Virus record (IMG/VR): IMGVR_UViG_3300045988_079407
Strand: one strand, 5' to 3'
Source: a virus
Lineage: Duplodnaviria; Heunggongvirae; Uroviricota; Caudoviricetes
Length of the DNA: 32,423 nt
This document shows, one piece after another, positions 5,812 through 32,423 of the stretch. Below the pieces are notes generated by a model, which saw nothing but the letters and a program-made list of their open reading frames with translations, had not been told where the DNA came from and made no database searches. The stretch's first letter is position 1. Every line of letters starts with the position of its first letter. The position numbers and the translations under genes were made by a program.

Positions 5812-7884
5812 TTACCAGCCCGTAATGTAGTTATCGCCCGCGTAAATATTCAGCCCCATACCGTCCTCGGTGACGCGGGAACTGGTCAGACGTAACCCCT
5901 CGCCAAGTTCGACGCGCAGCGAGGCTTCCGCATTCACTTTTTGCTCCTGCGGCTCCTTATCCGGGGCCGTCCATTTCTGATACAGGTCGGTTACAAAACC
6001 GCCCAGATACTCCCCGGCGACACTGCCCAGCGTGGCACCGGCAACCGTACCCAGCGGTCCGGCAAGGCTGCCAACGGCACCGCCGAGCCATGCACCGGCT
6101 GTACTGCCAATTGCGCCTGCTTTTTCATGGGTTGACGCCTGCTCATCCATCAGGACGGGGGCAAGCTGTAGTGCCCCCATTACCGGGCCACCCAGACGTG
6201 ACAACGCACGACCGGCACCTTTCCCCATCCAGCCCAGCGCCCCGGCACCTTTCGTCACAACCCGACCGATCACACTGCCTGAAAGTTTGTTTCCGATACC
6301 GGAAAACCACCCGCCAACAGCACGCCCGGCATCAGCCAGCTTTCCGACCGTTCCCGTAACCAGTTGCCCGGCAGCACTGCCTGCAAGCCTGCTCAGAAGA
6401 CCGGATTTACCGGGTAAAGGTAATGGTGCAGGCCGTGCCGTTACCGGTACGCCGGGTGGGGGTAATGCCAGTACAGGGCGTGGTGCAGGTAATGCCAGCG
6501 GCTGTGGCCCGGACAGCAATAACGGCTGGCGGGGTAACAGCGGGGCCATTCTTCCGCCGCTCCGTACGCGACGACCGCCGCCACTCCTGTAGCCACCAAA
6601 TCCACGGGGCCAGTTGATGACAAACACACGCTGAATGCCGATACCCTGCAACAGCGTCTCAGACGTCATGGCATCCGGGACCGGCAGACCTGCCTGCCCA
6701 CGTTTGCGGTTTCGCATCCAGCGCCACATACGACGCCCGGTTTTAAACGGATAACTGGCAACCTGCCATGAGGGTTTTGCCACGGCCCAGCCTGCTCTCA
6801 GGGCTTTATTGGCAAGCCAGACAGACACCAGAACAGCAGCCAGTTTTTTCAGGCTGACAATATTCTGGTCAACCCATGCCAGCGCATCTTTACCCGGTTT
6901 CAGCCAGCGCCATAATTCCTGTGCCGCGATTTTTACCGTTCTGAACGTGGTCAGAAATTTCTGACCAATGTTTTCTGCCAGTGCATCAAGTTCCCCGGAT
7001 TTATCCGCCATGTCGTGCCAGTTAAGCACCCGGCGCATCTCGTTCTTGATTTCTTCAAAGGGGCCGCTGTTTGCCACCTTTATGCGAAATTCAAGCAGGT
7101 TAGCTTCCATCTGGGCGAACATCCCGTCCCAGGAGTTCATCGCACTGGCCTGTGCACCTTTTGACTGTTCTGACAGCGTTCTGAATACCGTCAGAATGGA
7201 TTTCAGGCCCAGCTTGCCTTTTTCACCTTGTTTGCGGATATCCTTAACGTCTTTACCCAGTGCATCCGCCAGCGTCTGGTAAACGTTAATACCGTAACCG
7301 GTCAGCAGGTTGGCATCCGCCGCTGTGATTTGCTGGCGGGCAAACATCTGTTTCAGTTGCAGTGAGGCACCCTGTGCAGTGGGTAAATCCCAGCCGTGCA
7401 TGGCCCCCTGATCCTGCAACATGGTGATGAACTGTTTCGTCTGTTCATCCGTCATGCCGAAGCCTTTTGACGAACGGATCTCATCCAGAACACCACTCAG
7501 CCCCCACGTGGTGTCCTTCGCGTTCTGCTTTGCCCAGGCCATCATGGCCTGCGCTCTGACCTTATCGCCGTGATACAGCGAGTTCATGGCGATAATCTGT
7601 TGCTCACGCTGGGCGGCTGCACCAATAAACAGTTTATTGGCGGTGTAACCCACGCCAGCGATACCCAGCGCCCCGGCTGACAGCATTCGGAATGTACGGG
7701 TTGACAGAGAACCCATTCTGTCAATGGCACCAGAAACGCGCACAACCTCCATACGCAGGGCACGAAGGGAACTTTGCCCGCTACGGGACAGGGCGTTTAT
7801 CTGGTTCGAATACTGGCGGGAACGCCGGGAAAGATTGCCATTAAGATCAATAATGACAGACGCCTTTAAGCGTTTCCCGGTCAT
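5812..7884 (-). CDS. Tail tape measure protein (about 690 aa from the ATG at 7884)
   Basis: Long ORF with a helical N-terminal half, a Pro-rich linker ([33 protein letters not shown]) and a Gly/Ala-rich hydrophobic C-terminus. The internal ATG at 7884 (MTGKRLK) has an AGGAAA Shine-Dalgarno about 9 nt upstream; the track ATG at 7977 has none, so the start is uncertain. Confidence 0.8.
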
Positions 7885-8472: not shown

Positions 8473-8829
8473 TTATGCAATGCGTTTGCTTTGTTTTGCC
8501 ATCAGTACCAGCGAAATTTCGCCGCCGTCGTTTTTCGGTTCATCTGCCTGCCAGGCATTCGCCATCATCCAGGTTTCACCGGTGTCTGCCTGAAACTCTG
8601 CCGTGATGTTTTCCCAGCCGATGATTTCATCCAGACCGATATCACCACCGCCCGGAATTTTGCATTCCAGCTTTGCGGCACGTGGTTTACCTTTCCAGCC
8701 ATAAACCCGCGAGCCGGTCACTTCTTCACGGGTGATGCCGGAAGGCGTGAAGGAGGCCCCTTCCATCGTTTCAAGCTCCATGCCATTGACACGGATGAAC
8801 GCCACCCCCTGACGCTGATTTCCAGCCAT
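8473..8829 (-). CDS. M: Tail tube protein (118 aa)
   Basis: 118 aa directly downstream of the sheath gene; matches Mu M in size and order. Confidence 0.8.
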   Translation of the reverse strand: MAGNQRQGVAFIRVNGMELETMEGASFTPSGITREEVTGSRVYGWKGKPRAAKLECKIPGGGDIGLDEIIGWENITAEFQADTGETWMMANAWQADEPKNDGGEISLVLMAKQSKRIA

Positions 8830-8838
8830 AAATGCTCC

Positions 8839-10326
8839 TTACAGAATGAACTGAACTTGTGCCGCGAAAATGCGGAACTGGTTAATCAGATTCGGGCCGC
8901 ACAGCACATCAAGACGGTCTTTGTCGTCCTTGTTACGTGCTACATACAGCTCCTCTTTGAACGTGTCGAAATCCTCGACCAGTCCGGCGTTTTCCCATTC
9001 TTCAAACAGTGCCAGCAGCTCCGTTTTGATCACGGATGGCGTCACCACGGCCTGACCGGTGGCAAAGCGGGTGCCATCACTTGCCAGCTTATAGTTCGGG
9101 AATTTCTGCGTGATGCGGGTTCGCAGCGAATAACGCAGATAACTCAGCGTGGCGATAGTATTCACGTTCAGATAAGACGGATCACTGTCACCGTACTTGT
9201 TTGTGCGGTACATCGTGATCATGCGTTCAATCTGCATTTCACCACCATCATTCACGTTAAACGTGGAGATGCCGTCAAACAGCAGCGCATTACGTTCTGA
9301 CCAGGTGAAACGATCCCCCACCGCAGGCGGCATTCTTCCGGGCAACGTCAGCGTCTGGAGAGGACGCGCCGGGTCGATGGAAAGCGCCTGGCTGGCAACG
9401 GCACACAGTGTGGCGGCGTACAGGTATGACGGTTCCGGTGCACCGGCAATCCCCATACAGGAGATCAGATGGTCATTACGACTGACACCAAACGTGGAAA
9501 TATCCCCATACGTGCCGGACAGCACTGTCACGGCAAAGCCATCAGCCTGATTGACCGGTCCCCAGCGTTCCTGCAATTCAGTGCGTAACAGATTCAGGTT
9601 CGGTTCATCGGTATAGGGCATCACAATATATTTGTATTGCAGATCGCCCATTCCCGCGATACTTGCGCTGATATCCGGGTTGCCATTTTTCCCGGAGGCG
9701 GCTTTGAATGCCGTGATAATCCCGTAAGGGGTGGTTTCACCCGCGTAATAGTTCCAGCGCACATCCACGGCAGATAATGCACCCGTAAATTTTGCACTCA
9801 GAACCACATCTGCATGGGTGTCATCATCCCCGCTGTCTGCGCGAACTTCTGCCGTCACCGGTAAATCAGGCTGGCCTTTGATTCGGGCAACCAGCAGGTC
9901 AGCCAGCGCCGCTCCCGTTGCACCTGCTGCGACAGATACCGCCAGTCGCTGACCGGCAATGTAAGTCACAAGCGAGCCGTTTTCGCCTGCCGTTCCTGAC
10001 AGTGAAATTTCACCGACAGCAGCATTACCGGTGCCGTTCCCCTGCGGAATACACCACAGCTCCGCCACGCGGTTAGCGTTCAGGAATGCATCTGCCATCA
10101 GTGCCAGCATGGAACCCTGACCAAACGCCGCACTGGCCTGTGAGCCGGAACGGATACGGACAGGCACGTTTGGTGCCGCACTGGCTTTACTTCCGCTTTG
10201 CCCGAACATCAGCACGCGCTGACGGGGTGCCGGTGTTCCGCTGACGGCATTACTGTTATCAAATTCGATATACGTCAGAGGAACGCGAACATCTGACGGG
10301 ATCGCGTTAAATGAAATATCGCTCAT
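8839..10326 (-). CDS. L: Contractile tail sheath protein (495 aa)
   Basis: 495 aa, followed by the tube gene; matches Mu L in size and order. Confidence 0.9.
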
Positions 10327-10529
10327 TTCGATTTACTCCGTTTTTTCGGCGCAGTGTCGGTATCATCCGACGTGTTTTCGGTGCTCCCGACTTCAACCAC
10401 ATCACCGGCTGCAAGGCGACGTATCCAGAAACTGTTACGGGGCTTTTCTTCTCCTTCAGACGCCAGTAATTTCATCGTGAGCGGGTCACGGATGGCTTTT
10501 CCCGCTGCGGGTTTAATTTTCAGCATCAT
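10323..10529 (-). CDS. Small conserved Mu-like protein (gp38-like, 68 aa)
   Basis: Overlaps neighbours on both sides (ATGA-type coupling); synteny. Confidence 0.55.
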
Positions 10530-20789: not shown

Positions 20790-21036
20790 GATGTTCTGTC
20801 TCATCTGCCAGCCGTGCGGCACGATTTGCGGCACGGATAGCGGAAAATACCTGCATCGTCTGTTCCTGACCGTGTAACAACCATTCAGCAGTGTGGCGGG
20901 CCTGTTGCTCCGTCTGTAATTCACGGCGCAGCGTCTGGTTATCGTGGCGGGTGCTGTCCAGCCTGTGCCACAACACCCCGGACAGAACGGCGGTAAACAC
21001 GGCTGCCATCAGTAAACTTTTACTGGCGAAGGTCAT
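20650..21036 (-). CDS. Inner-membrane spanin (i-spanin, 128 aa)
   Basis: N-terminal transmembrane helix (LLMAAVFTAVLSGVLW) followed by a charged helical periplasmic domain; immediately after the endolysin gene. Confidence 0.6.
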   Translation of the reverse strand: MTFASKSLLMAAVFTAVLSGVLWHRLDSTRHDNQTLRRELQTEQQARHTAEWLLHGQEQTMQVFSAIRAANRAARLADETEHHDAKEKITTAITGDNCSTRPVPAVAADRLRELEKRTRAIGGDPARN

Positions 21037-21538
21037 CCGCCCCCCTGATATTCCAGATTGCCATTTCCACTTCGCGACGGTTCATCAGTCCTTTCCATTT
21101 ATGGCCTGCGGCAAACACCCAGCGGGCCATCTGGTCACGCGCTCCGGCGTAATCACCGGCATTGAGTTTTTTCAGCAGCGTTGATTTACTGAATGCGGTA
21201 ACACCGGTGTTGAAAATAAACGTTGCCAGCGCCGTTTTCTGATATGGCGTCAGCGGCACCCTGACAAGACGATCGATTGCCGCATAAACCGGTTTTAAAT
21301 CACTGTCGAGGAGAGCCATACACTCCGCATGGCTGTAACGGCGCATTTCGATATCCGGCCCGGTATGTCCCACACAGACCGTAAGCACACCGGCAATATC
21401 GCGGTAAGGCATATAAGCGATATTTTCCAGGTGGATCAGAGACTGACGGGTCATTTCCTGATAACCACCCACACCGCCACCGGCAATCGTTGCCGCCAGC
21501 AGTGCGGCTTTCAGTTTTTTTGGTATCCCCGCCATCAT
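21020..21538 (-). CDS. lys: SAR endolysin (lysozyme-like, 172 aa)
   Basis: N-terminal signal-anchor-release-like segment KLKAALLAATIAGGGVGGY followed by a lysozyme-like domain; first gene after C, as in Mu. Confidence 0.8.
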   Translation of the reverse strand: MMAGIPKKLKAALLAATIAGGGVGGYQEMTRQSLIHLENIAYMPYRDIAGVLTVCVGHTGPDIEMRRYSHAECMALLDSDLKPVYAAIDRLVRVPLTPYQKTALATFIFNTGVTAFSKSTLLKKLNAGDYAGARDQMARWVFAAGHKWKGLMNRREVEMAIWNIRGADDLRQ

Positions 21539-21609
21539 GCTTCCCTGAAAAAATGCTCTGATGGCAGTCTAAAAAATCAGATGGCAGGTGCGGGATTATG
21601 GTGACAGGA

Positions 21610-21634
21610 AATAACCGGCAGGATGCCGGTTATT
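21610..21634 (-). terminator. Hairpin (11-bp perfect stem, 3-nt loop) overlapping the C stop codon; candidate terminator of the middle transcript
   Basis: aataaccggca-gga-tgccggttatt; the C stop (21630..21632) lies inside the 3' arm. It lies upstream of the expected C-dependent lys promoter at 21539..21629. Confidence 0.5.
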
Positions 21635-22052
21635 TCTGGCTTTCAGGTGAGAACAGATCAGGCTGATGACGTCGTGTATGCAGCTTTCTCTGGCTGGCAA
21701 TAATCTGGTAGATCTGCGGCTGGGACAGGCGATACTGGCGACGCAGTTCTTCCATGTTACGACCATTGAACTGGCAGTAAAGCAAATCGTCGCGTAACGC
21801 GGTCAGGATCGTATCGCCGCAGGGGATGTAAAACTGCCGTCCACCCAGAAAACAGGACAGGGCAACGGCCTGTTTACGGGCAAGCTCACGGGGATTGCTG
21901 ACGTTCTGGCGTTTCAGTTCGTTTTCCAGAACATCAATCAGATCAACCACCGAACGGGGCCAGCGTGATTCCAGTTCCGGGGCCGGGATGTTATCAATAT
22001 GTCCGATTAACTGGCGAATTGCCGGATCGTGTTCAAATAAATCATGCTGCAT
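21630..22052 (-). CDS. C: Late transcription activator C (140 aa)
   Basis: 140 aa; Mor/C family with a C-terminal HTH-like region (RRQYRLSQPQIYQIIA); located just before lys. Confidence 0.85.
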   Translation of the reverse strand: MQHDLFEHDPAIRQLIGHIDNIPAPELESRWPRSVVDLIDVLENELKRQNVSNPRELARKQAVALSCFLGGRQFYIPCGDTILTALRDDLLYCQFNGRNMEELRRQYRLSQPQIYQIIASQRKLHTRRHQPDLFSPESQK

Positions 22053-22164
22053 ATTTTCCCCCGGTTAACAGACAGAAAGATACACCACTGCACTGATGGT
22101 TATCAGAACCACAGGGGCAATCACTTTTATCGCACTAATCAGCGTGGACGGCCCGAAACATTCA

Positions 22165-22395
22165 TCACTGAATTTTCTGTACATGGTATTTTTCTCTGTA
22201 GCGCCGGCAATGGTGGATAATTTCTGGCATATCAACGGACTGCCAGCCTTTCATGTAATAACTTCCGTGGGTGCCATCGTGCCCTGTGTAATCCATTGGC
22301 TTTGGTGGCGGGCCTCCGGCCTCCCGATGTAATACCTCCTGTCGTAAACGTTCACGCCTGCCGAACTGAAAGGACGCATCCCACCCTTTACCCAT
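22165..22395 (-). CDS. Hypothetical protein (76 aa from the ATG at 22395)
   Basis: The ATG overlaps the GH108 stop; weak call because its 3' end overlaps the 39-aa ORF at 22065..22184 by 20 nt. Confidence 0.3.
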   Translation of the reverse strand: MGKGWDASFQFGRRERLRQEVLHREAGGPPPKPMDYTGHDGTHGSYYMKGWQSVDMPEIIHHCRRYREKYHVQKIQ

Positions 22396-22948
22396 GCAGA
22401 ACCTCCCGACAGGCGCTGGCGAGCAGATCCAGACGGTTAAACCAGCCATTCAGATATTTCCCCTGCGAGGCACTGGATTTGATAATCCCTGCGTAATAGC
22501 GGGAACGACGCAGGAAGCACTGCAACAGCAGCCAGTCAGTATCGGCACGCAGAACGGCTGCGCGTGTGTTTTTACCGACGATGCCATCATCATCAACACC
22601 TGCTGCCGCCTGGAGGATCTGAATCGCGCGTTTAACACCGTGCTGAACGGCAGCATCAAAAACGAATAAGGAAACGCCATCAGGCCATTCGTTACACTTT
22701 GCCGCCAGCCAGTAATCACGCCAGTAGATCTGCGCCGCCTGCTCGCGGGTTAAATCCTTAATGCGGGTATCAGGTTTTCCGTCACCGTTAACATCGGTTT
22801 TGCCATCAATAACACCGTCGCGACGGTCAGAAATACCGTATTTCGTTTCGCCGCCACGGTCGGCAGGATCATTAACATAGCCACCTTCAACATCAGGGCG
22901 TATAACGAAATTCAGCGAATGAAGGAATGCAGGGGAAAACTCAGGCAT
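22388..22948 (-). CDS. Glycoside hydrolase family 108-like muramidase with C-terminal peptidoglycan-binding domain (186 aa)
   Basis: N-terminal signature VEGGYVNDPADRGGETKYGIS (EGGY ... D.GG.T.YGI), followed by a region resembling PG_binding_3; AGGAGGG Shine-Dalgarno upstream. Confidence 0.75.
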   Translation of the reverse strand: MPEFSPAFLHSLNFVIRPDVEGGYVNDPADRGGETKYGISDRRDGVIDGKTDVNGDGKPDTRIKDLTREQAAQIYWRDYWLAAKCNEWPDGVSLFVFDAAVQHGVKRAIQILQAAAGVDDDGIVGKNTRAAVLRADTDWLLLQCFLRRSRYYAGIIKSSASQGKYLNGWFNRLDLLASACREVLHG

Positions 22949-23000
22949 GTTGCCCTCCTGTCATGAACGTTTTATCGTCACAACAGAATATTGAGGGCGT

Positions 23001-23030
23001 AAAAAAAGCCGGATTAACCGGCTTTACTGT
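23001..23030 (-). terminator. Intrinsic terminator right after mor (early transcript terminator, t9.2-like)
   Basis: 8-bp stem aaagccgg / ccggcttt with loop attaa; on the minus strand it is followed by a run of seven U. It lies about 9.3 kb from the left end. Confidence 0.65.
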
Positions 23031-23420
23031 TTAAAACAAAGGGGGGGAATACTGACGATACTTTATACGCCGCATTCGTCGGATGGCTTTATAGACTGTG
23101 TTAAATGTCACACCATGACGGATTGCCAGTTCGTGAACATTGCGACCGTTGAAATCATTCCAGATACGCAAATCCCGAATCAGCGAATCCAGAACCTGAC
23201 CGCGTGGAATGTAGACCTGACCGCCGCCCAGATGCTTACAGATAGCCACAACAATCTCCAGTGAATGGGCCGGATCAACACCTAACCGGGACAATTCCCC
23301 GCGCAGTAAATCGTTCAGCTCCGCCAGCAGTGCCGGAAAGCGTGACGCATCCTCTGCGGGATTGTCAAGATGTGCCAGGATGGTGTCATCCTGCAAATCA
23401 CCAAATAAATCTTCCGTCAT
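23031..23420 (-). CDS. mor: Middle operon regulator Mor (129 aa)
   Basis: 129 aa, Mor/C family; last gene of the early operon, just upstream of the terminator. Confidence 0.85.
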   Translation of the reverse strand: MTEDLFGDLQDDTILAHLDNPAEDASRFPALLAELNDLLRGELSRLGVDPAHSLEIVVAICKHLGGGQVYIPRGQVLDSLIRDLRIWNDFNGRNVHELAIRHGVTFNTVYKAIRRMRRIKYRQYSPPLF

Positions 23421-23968
23421 TGTGCCATCCTCCGTGTCTTTCTGGCATGGGCATAAGCCGCCGTCATGGCATCATAGCCGCGCAGTTCACGACCGGACGG
23501 ACTGACCGGCAATGGAAGCCCGTGACGGGAAAAGGCTTCACGAATACAGCGGATGTGCCACTGCTTGAGTGTTTCGAGGACTGTCAGCAGCGTGTCGCCA
23601 TGACACCACGCCAGTGTGGAAACGCCCTGTCCGCCGTTGCGTTTCGCGGTCAGGCGCTGAACATATTTATCCAGCGCCACATCACCGCCATCGGTAATAA
23701 AACCGTCTTCTGCCATCTGCTGCCAGATTTTATACACCTTCTCGCGGGGTGTGACATGTTCCTTAAAGCGGCGACGGGGGTATTTATTCAGCTTCTTAAA
23801 GCCGCGTTCTTTCATGGCATCGAGCACCTGTTCCAGTTGCGTAACCGTAAGCTCGCGGCAACTGATTTTGCCCGTTTTCTGCATCAGAAAAGCGCGGTAA
23901 GTGTCGTCGTCGAGTTGTAGCTCCCGACGGGCGACATGGATTAATTTAATCAGGGATGTGCGACTCAT
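23417..23968 (-). CDS. gemA: GemA-like protein (Mu gp16-like, 183 aa)
   Basis: ATG at 23968 (MSRTSLIKLIHVARREL) with a GGAGG Shine-Dalgarno 7 nt upstream; overlaps the mor start by 4 nt. The 264-aa track ORF is an upstream extension. Confidence 0.75.
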   Translation of the reverse strand: MSRTSLIKLIHVARRELQLDDDTYRAFLMQKTGKISCRELTVTQLEQVLDAMKERGFKKLNKYPRRRFKEHVTPREKVYKIWQQMAEDGFITDGGDVALDKYVQRLTAKRNGGQGVSTLAWCHGDTLLTVLETLKQWHIRCIREAFSRHGLPLPVSPSGRELRGYDAMTAAYAHARKTRRMAQ

Positions 23969-24037: not shown

Positions 24038-24397
24038 ATGGCTGAACAAGAACAACATACAGTGTCGGATGATGAACAAAACCCAGATTTCGAAACAAAC
24101 CAGAAAGACACCCCTGTTAATAACCAGGATAAATTCTTTGGTATAACCGGTTTTATGCTGGTCGGTAATCTGATGATTAAGCTGATTGAAAACGGTGTTA
24201 TCAACATGCACGATGCTTATGACATCATCAGAAATACACAGGCCAGCTATAAGAACCGAAAAACGTTCGAAGAACTGGATTTTGAGGCCGATGAGTATGT
24301 TGATCTGCTGCTCAATAAGCTCTGGGCTTCAAGGCAGGATATTGTTAATGCCGGGAACCTCTCATCAGAGCACACAGATACTGACGCTGTGGAATAA
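24038..24397 (+). CDS. Hypothetical acidic protein (119 aa), opposite strand to the early operon; candidate moron
   Basis: ATG at 24038 with AAAGGA 7-8 nt upstream; strongly acidic with one hydrophobic stretch (FFGITGFMLVGNLMIKLI); about 40% G+C by hand count over the first 60 nt. The only plus-strand ORF here that does not overlap a confident minus-strand gene over most of its length. Confidence 0.5.
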   Translation: MAEQEQHTVSDDEQNPDFETNQKDTPVNNQDKFFGITGFMLVGNLMIKLIENGVINMHDAYDIIRNTQASYKNRKTFEELDFEADEYVDLLLNKLWASRQDIVNAGNLSSEHTDTDAVE

Positions 24398-24635
24398 CCG
24401 CTGAATCATCAACGCCAAGCTCACGACAAACAATATTGTTGTGGGCTTTTTTGTTATGCAACAAAACTTCGTCGCGTATGAGATGAATTTCCCGTGTCAT
24501 AATTTCAAGGGCCTCTCTCGCAGAAAAGCCTTTACTGATTGCAGTCTCAATAACATCGCGCATACGCTCAAGCATCTTAGCTTTCACCAGTTCTTCATCC
24601 AGGTCTTTAGGCGTAAATTTAGTTTCATTATTCAT
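24345..24635 (-). CDS. Hypothetical early protein (96 aa from the ATG at 24635)
   Basis: ATG (MNNETKF) with an AAGGTG Shine-Dalgarno; the upstream stop sits 2 nt away; helical charged protein. Its 3' end overlaps the plus-strand ORF by 53 nt. Confidence 0.5.
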   Translation of the reverse strand: MNNETKFTPKDLDEELVKAKMLERMRDVIETAISKGFSAREALEIMTREIHLIRDEVLLHNKKAHNNIVCRELGVDDSAVIPQRQYLCALMRGSRH

Positions 24636-24636
24636 A

Positions 24637-24819
24637 TTATTCACCTTCACAATTCATGCACGCCGTGTCATCGCCCATATCGCAGTGGTTGCATTTCTGC
24701 CCGCCACAATGAGGGCACTCTTTCAGATATTCAGGGGATTCATTACCGCAGGTCGGGCATTCCTGTTTCACCGTGGTAAATTTCCCCAGCCACGAATACG
24801 ATGTTTCATTGTTTTCCAT
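24637..24819 (-). CDS. Small zinc-ribbon protein (60 aa)
   Basis: CPTC ... CPHC ... CNHC ... CMNC, eight Cys in 60 aa; start overlaps the upstream gene. Confidence 0.5.
   Translation of the reverse strand: MENNETSYSWLGKFTTVKQECPTCGNESPEYLKECPHCGGQKCNHCDMGDDTACMNCEGE

Positions 24820-32145: not shown

Positions 32146-32423
<278 letters not shown>

Follow-up and report, generated by a model that had tools for sequence, protein, structure and literature searches.

Locus and phage identity

The window examined here, by which we mean the whole 32,423-nucleotide stretch of IMG/VR record IMGVR_UViG_3300045988_079407, is identified by its sequence as a Muvirus prophage, a Mu-like phage of E. coli. 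The Mu left-end sequence (TGTATTGATTCACTTG…) is present on the minus strand (Table 1), and the ~106 bp beyond it (32318..32423) are expected to be host flank. Over 74-80% of its length, the left 12.4 kb of the phage matches Mu, D108 and related phages at 96-98% identity. The Yersinia phages vB_YpM_5 and vB_YpM_6 share 99.4% identity with region 22300-23500. The same region is ~91.7% identical to Mu, D108 and SfMu, but the similarity to these three spans only gemA, mor and the beginning of the gap downstream of mor.

The whole neighbourhood, comprising the early operon, a GH108 muramidase gene, the late activator gene C and the lysozyme gene, is encoded on the minus strand. The cognate activator Mor is encoded in the early operon that precedes the gap, and the operon downstream of the gap ends in C. 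The window's Mor is 92% identical to Mu Mor across all 129 aa, and its residues 104-118 (the FNTVYKAIRRMRR region) are identical to those of Mu Mor. Between mor and GH108 lie 82 nt, which read on the minus strand, together with the stop codon on one side and the start codon on the other, TAA ACAGT AAAGCCGG TTAAT CCGGCTTT TTTT ACGCCCTCAA TATTCT GTTGTGACGATAAAACGTTCATGACAGGAGGGCAAC ATG. Among 5,426 complete E. coli genomes, 8 carry a prophage with the GH108-type junction.

Table 1. Features of the early/middle junction and its surroundings, in window coordinates; Pm positions are counted from the middle transcript start
Feature	Coordinates	Strand	Pm position	Remarks
Mu left-end sequence	32317	minus
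gemA	23968..23417	minus		Pfam GemA 3.7e-31; directly 5' of mor
mor	23420..23031	minus		Pfam Mor 5.9e-30; last early-operon gene, middle-promoter activator
mor stop codon TAA	23033..23031	minus	-56..-54
UP subsite TTAAAC	23034..23029	minus	-57..-52	includes the mor stop codon
Mor dyad AGTAA-AGCCGG-TTAAT (AGTAAAGCCGGTTAAT)	23028..23013	minus	-51..-36	centre -43.5; 16/16 identical to Mu
Predicted terminator hairpin AAAGCCGG-TTAAT-CCGGCTTT	23025..23005	minus	-48..-28	centre -38
Left arm AAAGCCGG	23025..23018	minus
Loop TTAAT	23017..23013	minus		5 nt
Right arm CCGGCTTT	23012..23005	minus
Seven-T run	23007..23001	minus	-30..-24	terminator U tract and Pm spacer
-10 hexamer TATTCT	22990..22985	minus	-13..-8	TATCCT in Mu
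Predicted middle transcript start	~22977 (22975..22978)	minus		Mu +1 equivalent is 22977 (C); A at 22978 and 22975
GH108 Shine-Dalgarno GGAGG	22958..22954	minus
GH108 muramidase gene	22948..22388	minus		first middle-operon gene; Pfam Glyco_hydro_108 9.3e-25 and PG_binding_3; phrog_315 endolysin
Gene 18 homologue	22395..22165	minus		phrog_2121
Gene 20 homologue	22184..22065	minus
Late activator gene C	22052..21630	minus		Pfam Mor 8.2e-33; end of middle operon
Lysozyme gene (lys)	21538..21020	minus		SAR endolysin

A predicted terminator hairpin directly behind mor

In its standard layout, a terminator consists of a GC-rich stem and a T run placed immediately behind an operon's last gene. At this locus a stem begins 5 nt past the stop codon of mor, on the strand that carries the entire early operon, and the hairpin has the features of an intrinsic terminator, that is, a G/C-rich stem, a short loop, an adjoining U tract and a position after the last gene of the unit. 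The stem alone is worth -11.7 kcal/mol. Folded in a 61-nt context, the hairpin has a centroid energy of -12.2 kcal/mol and a minimum free energy of -12.6 kcal/mol (z = -3.0), a stability equalled by one of 200 shuffles; in a 133-nt context it is retained and a competing structure is absent.

An earlier sequence-only reading of this locus had described a strong intrinsic terminator with an 8-bp stem and a seven-U tail after the mor stop, about 9.3 kb from the left end and about 50 bp from the GH108 start. The hairpin and its tail are indeed found at 23025..23001, and the end of the T run lies 9,316 bp from the Mu left end and 52 nt from the GH108 start codon (ATG at 22948), with the qualification that three U are common to the 8-bp stem and the seven-U tail. 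The structure can thus be drawn either as an 8-bp stem with a four-U tail or as a 5-bp GCCGG/CCGGC core with a seven-U tail.

A custom scan for hairpins of -8 kcal/mol or below that end at a run of at least six T returned this hairpin as its sole match on the phage coding strand in the whole 32.4 kb. The built-in terminator scan did not list the mor hairpin, probably because three of the seven T were counted into the longest stem. An Rfam match to sroD (23086..23000; E = 0.12) reached 24 bits, where the gathering score is 50, and was treated as the chance similarity of a terminator-ended RNA.

The predicted middle promoter and its Mor site

The middle promoter of Mu (Pm) provides the reference for the rest of the gap. 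The Mu +1 was set at nt 9224, the only value that fits the published -57 = G and -54 = A (PMC4390567), and Pm positions were mapped onto the window by gap-free alignment to Mu. In Mu, the Mor dimer site is a 16-bp element at -51 to -36 in which two 5-bp inverted repeats flank a G/C-rich hexamer, and Mor alone gives a footprint from -56 to -33/-36 (PMC4287176, PMC4390567). Mor together with RNA polymerase extends the footprint to -61..+14, and a fragment from -62 to +10 has full Pm activity (PMC4287176). The Mu promoter has a -10 element and neither a -35 nor an extended -10 element, it requires the C-terminal domains of the polymerase alpha and sigma subunits, and middle transcription is wholly dependent on Mor (PMC4287176).

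Two substitutions, at -20 and -10, are the only differences between the window and Mu Pm from -56 to -3. The exact Mor dyad occurs once in the entire window, and its distance from the -10 hexamer is the same as in Mu. Dyad-like matches with three mismatches at 1324, 6090 and 18980 were taken as chance, the one at 6090 lying within tape-measure coding sequence. As in Mu, there is no sign of a self-sufficient promoter: TATTCT is preceded by CAA, without a TGn extension, and the -35 position holds CCGGCT. A sigma-70 consensus scan of the interval found no complete promoter, which is expected since the promoter is activator-dependent.

[quoted passage not shown] The subsite in the window keeps both -55 A and -54 A, which are needed for alpha binding. 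The window and its closest relatives (also contigs L034-L037) have T at -57, where Mu has G; in Mu, a G-to-T change at this position doubled Pm activity (PMC4390567). At the other end of the promoter, the start of the middle transcript was placed from the -10 spacing and the Mu +1 at nt 9224. It may be shifted by a few bases, as the sequence near +1 differs from Mu from about -5 on.

Predicted terminator and promoter on the same DNA

When both sets of features are laid on one coordinate scale, the hairpin overlaps the 16-bp Mor site by 13 bp, through its left arm and loop. The right arm of the hairpin occupies the place of the would-be -35 hexamer, and the U tract serves as the promoter spacer. 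The two symmetry centres, at -43.5 for the Mor dyad and at -38 for the hairpin, are offset by 5.5 bp, and the right arm and the T run fall outside the dyad. The hairpin is therefore not merely the Mor palindrome seen in another way. The sequence-only reading had expected the Mor-dependent middle promoter in the same short interval, with the Mor site on terminator DNA. Both expectations are supported, the former by the retention of Mu Pm from -56 to -3 with its two substitutions and the latter by the 13 bp of the predicted site that lie within the hairpin. The packing is even tighter than had been proposed, with the promoter starting within the last mor codons.

Taken together, we regard it as very probable that 23034..22975 (minus strand) is the orthologue of the Mu early/middle operon junction, at which a hairpin ends the early transcripts and Mor binds the same DNA to start the middle ones. 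Of the elements of this account, identity, geometry, uniqueness and conservation were computed here, and Mor binding, footprints and polymerase contacts come from the Mu literature; for this phage, we infer termination efficiency and the exact start site.

Early in infection, transcripts from the early promoter near the left end would read through mor, and the RNA would form the hairpin of AAAGCCGG and CCGGCUUU followed by the U tract, with release at ~23001..22997. Termination at this point would keep the middle genes silent, including that of the late activator C. The same bases would, as DNA, be the Mor-dependent Pm. Once Mor has accumulated, its dimer would bind AGTAA-N6-TTAAT and cover the left arm and the loop of the hairpin, and it would substitute for the -35 element and recruit the sigma-70 polymerase. 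Transcription would then proceed from ~22977, 3' of TATTCT, through GH108, gene 18, gene 20 and C.

The GH108 cassette

The window is a mosaic whose splice point falls inside the promoter region. It retains Mu nt 8701-9218, up to about -6 of Pm, after which a 586-bp cassette (22982..22397, minus strand) replaces the short leader of Mu (nt 9219..9246). The cassette carries its own leader, Shine-Dalgarno sequence and GH108 gene, and it is joined at about -5 to -1, 5' of +1. Mu homology resumes at gene 18, whose ORF overlaps that of GH108 by 8 nt. Mu gene 19 (Mu 9463-9827), which encodes a 4-TM protein, is absent owing to a deletion at 22181..22187, and the block from gene 20 through lys (22187..21000) is 98.6% identical to Mu. 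With its GH108 muramidase, the phage carries a second cell-wall hydrolase besides the SAR endolysin.

This arrangement places GH108 as the first middle gene, driven directly by the predicted Pm, since there is no second Mor site and neither room nor signal for another promoter. Expression of GH108 is accordingly predicted to belong to the middle phase.

Conservation among relatives

Relatives of the junction were collected from IMG/VR, where 23 contigs with a Mor 90-99% identical to that of the window all carry an identical core. Three remoter lineages have a Mor with 82%, 80% and 68% identity. A scan of genome contigs for Mor relatives found none. In an alignment of five lineages, whose Mor proteins share 68-100% identity with that of the window, 30 of the 33 positions from -56 to -24 are invariant. 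By comparison, invariance in the last 147 nt of mor in the same five lineages extends to 79 of 147 positions, and among the 49 third codon positions to 9 (Fisher p = 5e-5). The hairpin itself is invariant at 19 of 21 positions and the T run at all seven.

The three variable sites are -50, which lies outside the stem, -48, where A changes to G and a G-U pair is kept, and -39 in the loop. All of them are within the Mor half-sites, and each leaves the hairpin intact. The A-U to G-U change, at the outermost pair, is the only stem change among the relatives; there are no compensatory double changes because the stem is otherwise nearly invariant. The comparison shows -56 to -24 to be under strong constraint, that is, purifying selection. 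The invariance of the right arm and the T run could come from promoter function alone, and conservation does not separate the two roles, because the block lies inside the RNA polymerase footprint.

In two of the IMG/VR contigs (L008 and L015, ~1880-1990), the 3' end of mor is of the Mu type and the -20/-10 alleles and the cassette are of the GH108 type, a combination that indicates recombination within the ~35-bp invariant Pm core. In another contig (IMGVR_UViG_2531839192_000008, ~1888-1975; L023), part of the Pm hairpin block (…CCGGGAATCCGGCTTTTTTTACGCCCTCAATGCCGGTTAATCCGGCTTTTTTT…) is duplicated in tandem, which could be either a genuine promoter/terminator duplication or an artefact of assembly.

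Comparison with known systems

The 3' end of the early transcript of Mu was reportedly mapped experimentally near 9.2 kb ('t9.2') by the Howe laboratory in about 1990. A literature search for 't9.2' found no papers. In the GenBank record of Mu (AF083977), a terminator at 9179-9200 is annotated within the middle-promoter feature 9163-9233; the terminator is a TransTermHP prediction, and the promoter is annotated as 'activated by Mor, PMID 8602357'. The D108 record has the same rho-independent terminator annotated. The Pm papers PMC4287176 and PMC4390567 mention terminators as vector parts only and do not discuss the one at this junction.

The junction in the window resembles that of Mu in its place after gemA and mor, 9.2-9.3 kb from the left end, and in an identical dyad, hairpin and T run. 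It differs at -57 (T in the window, G in Mu), at -20 (C instead of T) and in the -10 hexamer (TATTCT instead of TATCCT), and from about -5 on in the leader and the first gene, which is GH108 in the window but gene 18 in Mu. A related layout exists at the second junction of the same cascade, Mu Plys, where a hairpin at the stop codon of the activator gene is likewise followed by a promoter that depends on the Mor/C family. There, however, the terminator (10383-10406) and Plys (10403-10469) merely abut, with a 4-bp overlap, and the activator is C rather than Mor. In the window, at ~21632..21539 (minus strand), the C stop codon lies inside the left arm of AATAACCGGCA-tcc-TGCCGGTTATT, just 5' of the Plys region.

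In functional terms, Pm resembles class II promoters such as those activated by CRP: the activator dimer, with its centre near -42/-43, stands in for the -35 element and makes contact with the C-terminal domains of alpha and sigma (PMC4287176). [quoted passage not shown]

Mu-like phages that are more distant and have only one Mor/C gene are organized differently. The Vibrio phages martha 12B12 and 1.028.O, Shewanella phage MuM16-2, Pseudoalteromonas phage HS6 and Klebsiella phage Kp4866-3 also have gemA followed by a mor-like gene, whose protein is 30-63% identical to Mor (63% in Kp4866-3). In these five, however, the next ORF begins 0 to ~10 nt from the mor-like stop codon or overlaps it, which leaves no room for a promoter, and a hairpin with a T run was not found after the mor-like gene. 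On this comparison of sequences, only the Mu/D108/SfMu group has the overlap. In a further contig (IMGVR_UViG_2627853925_000002, ~1860-1940; L027), a long hairpin, AAAAAGCACAA…TTGTGCTTTT, stands behind a distant Mor-family gene (35% identity), and the T run of this hairpin directly adjoins the ATG of the next ORF; the hairpin is terminator-like, has no promoter room after it and differs in layout.

Alternative readings of the junction

Three other readings of the same interval were weighed against this account. The inverted repeat could be a promoter element and nothing else, made up of the Mor site and the spacer/-35 DNA, in which case it would be a poor terminator or none and the silence of the middle genes would come from something else. 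The whole hairpin does lie within the -61..+14 footprint of Mu Mor and polymerase, so that its conservation can be explained without a role for the RNA, and the stem offers no covariation; moreover, an 8-bp stem leaves a tail of only four U, and the built-in scan gave no terminator. Such a reading nevertheless leaves the geometry unaccounted for, as the hairpin is centred at -38 and not on the dyad at -43.5, and CCGGCTTT has no counterpart in the Mor half-sites. It also has to set aside the standard terminator layout after the last gene of the operon, the TransTermHP call in Mu and the fact that this is the sole such site on its strand in 32 kb. In addition, the complete dependence of Mu middle transcription on Mor implies little read-through from the early promoter. 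We consider the reading as a promoter element alone distinctly improbable. Still less credible, to the point that we give it almost no weight, is the idea that the GH108 cassette brought a promoter of its own and that the genes downstream are no longer under the control of Pm in this lineage. The divergence from Mu from about -5 on, followed by 586 bp of foreign DNA, would suit it, but Pm is intact from -62 to -3 on the 5' side of GH108, the predicted +1 lies only ~29 nt from the ATG, Shine-Dalgarno sequence included, neither 22949..23030 nor the junction of GH108 with gene 18 yielded a sigma-70-like promoter, and the window lacks a second Mor site.

A third reading is compatible with the main account of a junction that both terminates early transcripts and starts middle ones, and would make the overlap a regulatory device rather than a matter of compaction only. 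Mor bound at -56..-33 would cover the stop codon of its own gene and the left arm, and might thereby act as a roadblock to early polymerases or in autoregulation; alternatively, a polymerase released at -24 might be recaptured by Pm, or a ribosome halting at the mor TAA, 5 nt 5' of the stem, might tune hairpin formation. The geometry allows all three, with the footprint over the stop codon (-56..-54) and the left arm, and with release inside the promoter; a stop codon beside or inside a hairpin also recurs at the end of C before Plys. Against this, the Mu fragment from -62 to +10 is fully active without upstream transcription, which implies that Pm is independent of incoming polymerases, and the arrangement is missing from the distant Mu-like phages that have only one Mor/C gene, which ties it to the three-stage cascade and not to the Mor family as a whole. 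A regulatory role of this kind is, in our view, unlikely. The same doubt applies to its most explicit form, a timing switch in which early polymerases would clear the Mor site and be released at about -24, and bound Mor would in turn cover the stop codon and the left arm. If such a switch did exist, early traffic and Mor occupancy would oppose each other and sharpen the early-to-middle transition, and Mor autoregulation, a roadblock, or the hand-over of polymerase to Pm could result.

Significance for annotation

Pm is among the best-dissected activator-dependent promoters of phages, and its overlap with a terminator would be unsurprising to a Mu specialist. The arrangement of a terminator inside Pm is already known, as both features are nested on the Mu reference record. 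The value of the present analysis is mainly one of annotation: for this prophage, it marks where the early transcription unit ends and the middle one begins, locates the Mor site and the -10 hexamer and gives a likely start, and it puts the GH108 muramidase, an extra cell-wall hydrolase, under what would be direct Mor control. What is added to the known picture is the offset between dyad and hairpin, the invariance of the block, and the splice point of GH108 together with the loss of gene 19.

A further feature of the window lies on the plus strand, where an ORF of 119 aa (24038..24397) is situated within the early region, between a minus-strand ORF (24650..24345) and gemA. It has a full-length match to phrog_38610 (function unknown) and no Pfam match, and on its 3' side stands a terminator (24417..24448) with an 11-13 bp stem and a six-T run, the only strong one on the plus strand of the window. 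At the region of window positions 24038..24452, Mu has only ~105 bp, which contain the Mu 'semi-early promoter'. From its sequence and placement, the ORF looks like an antisense moron and could be expressed from the prophage.
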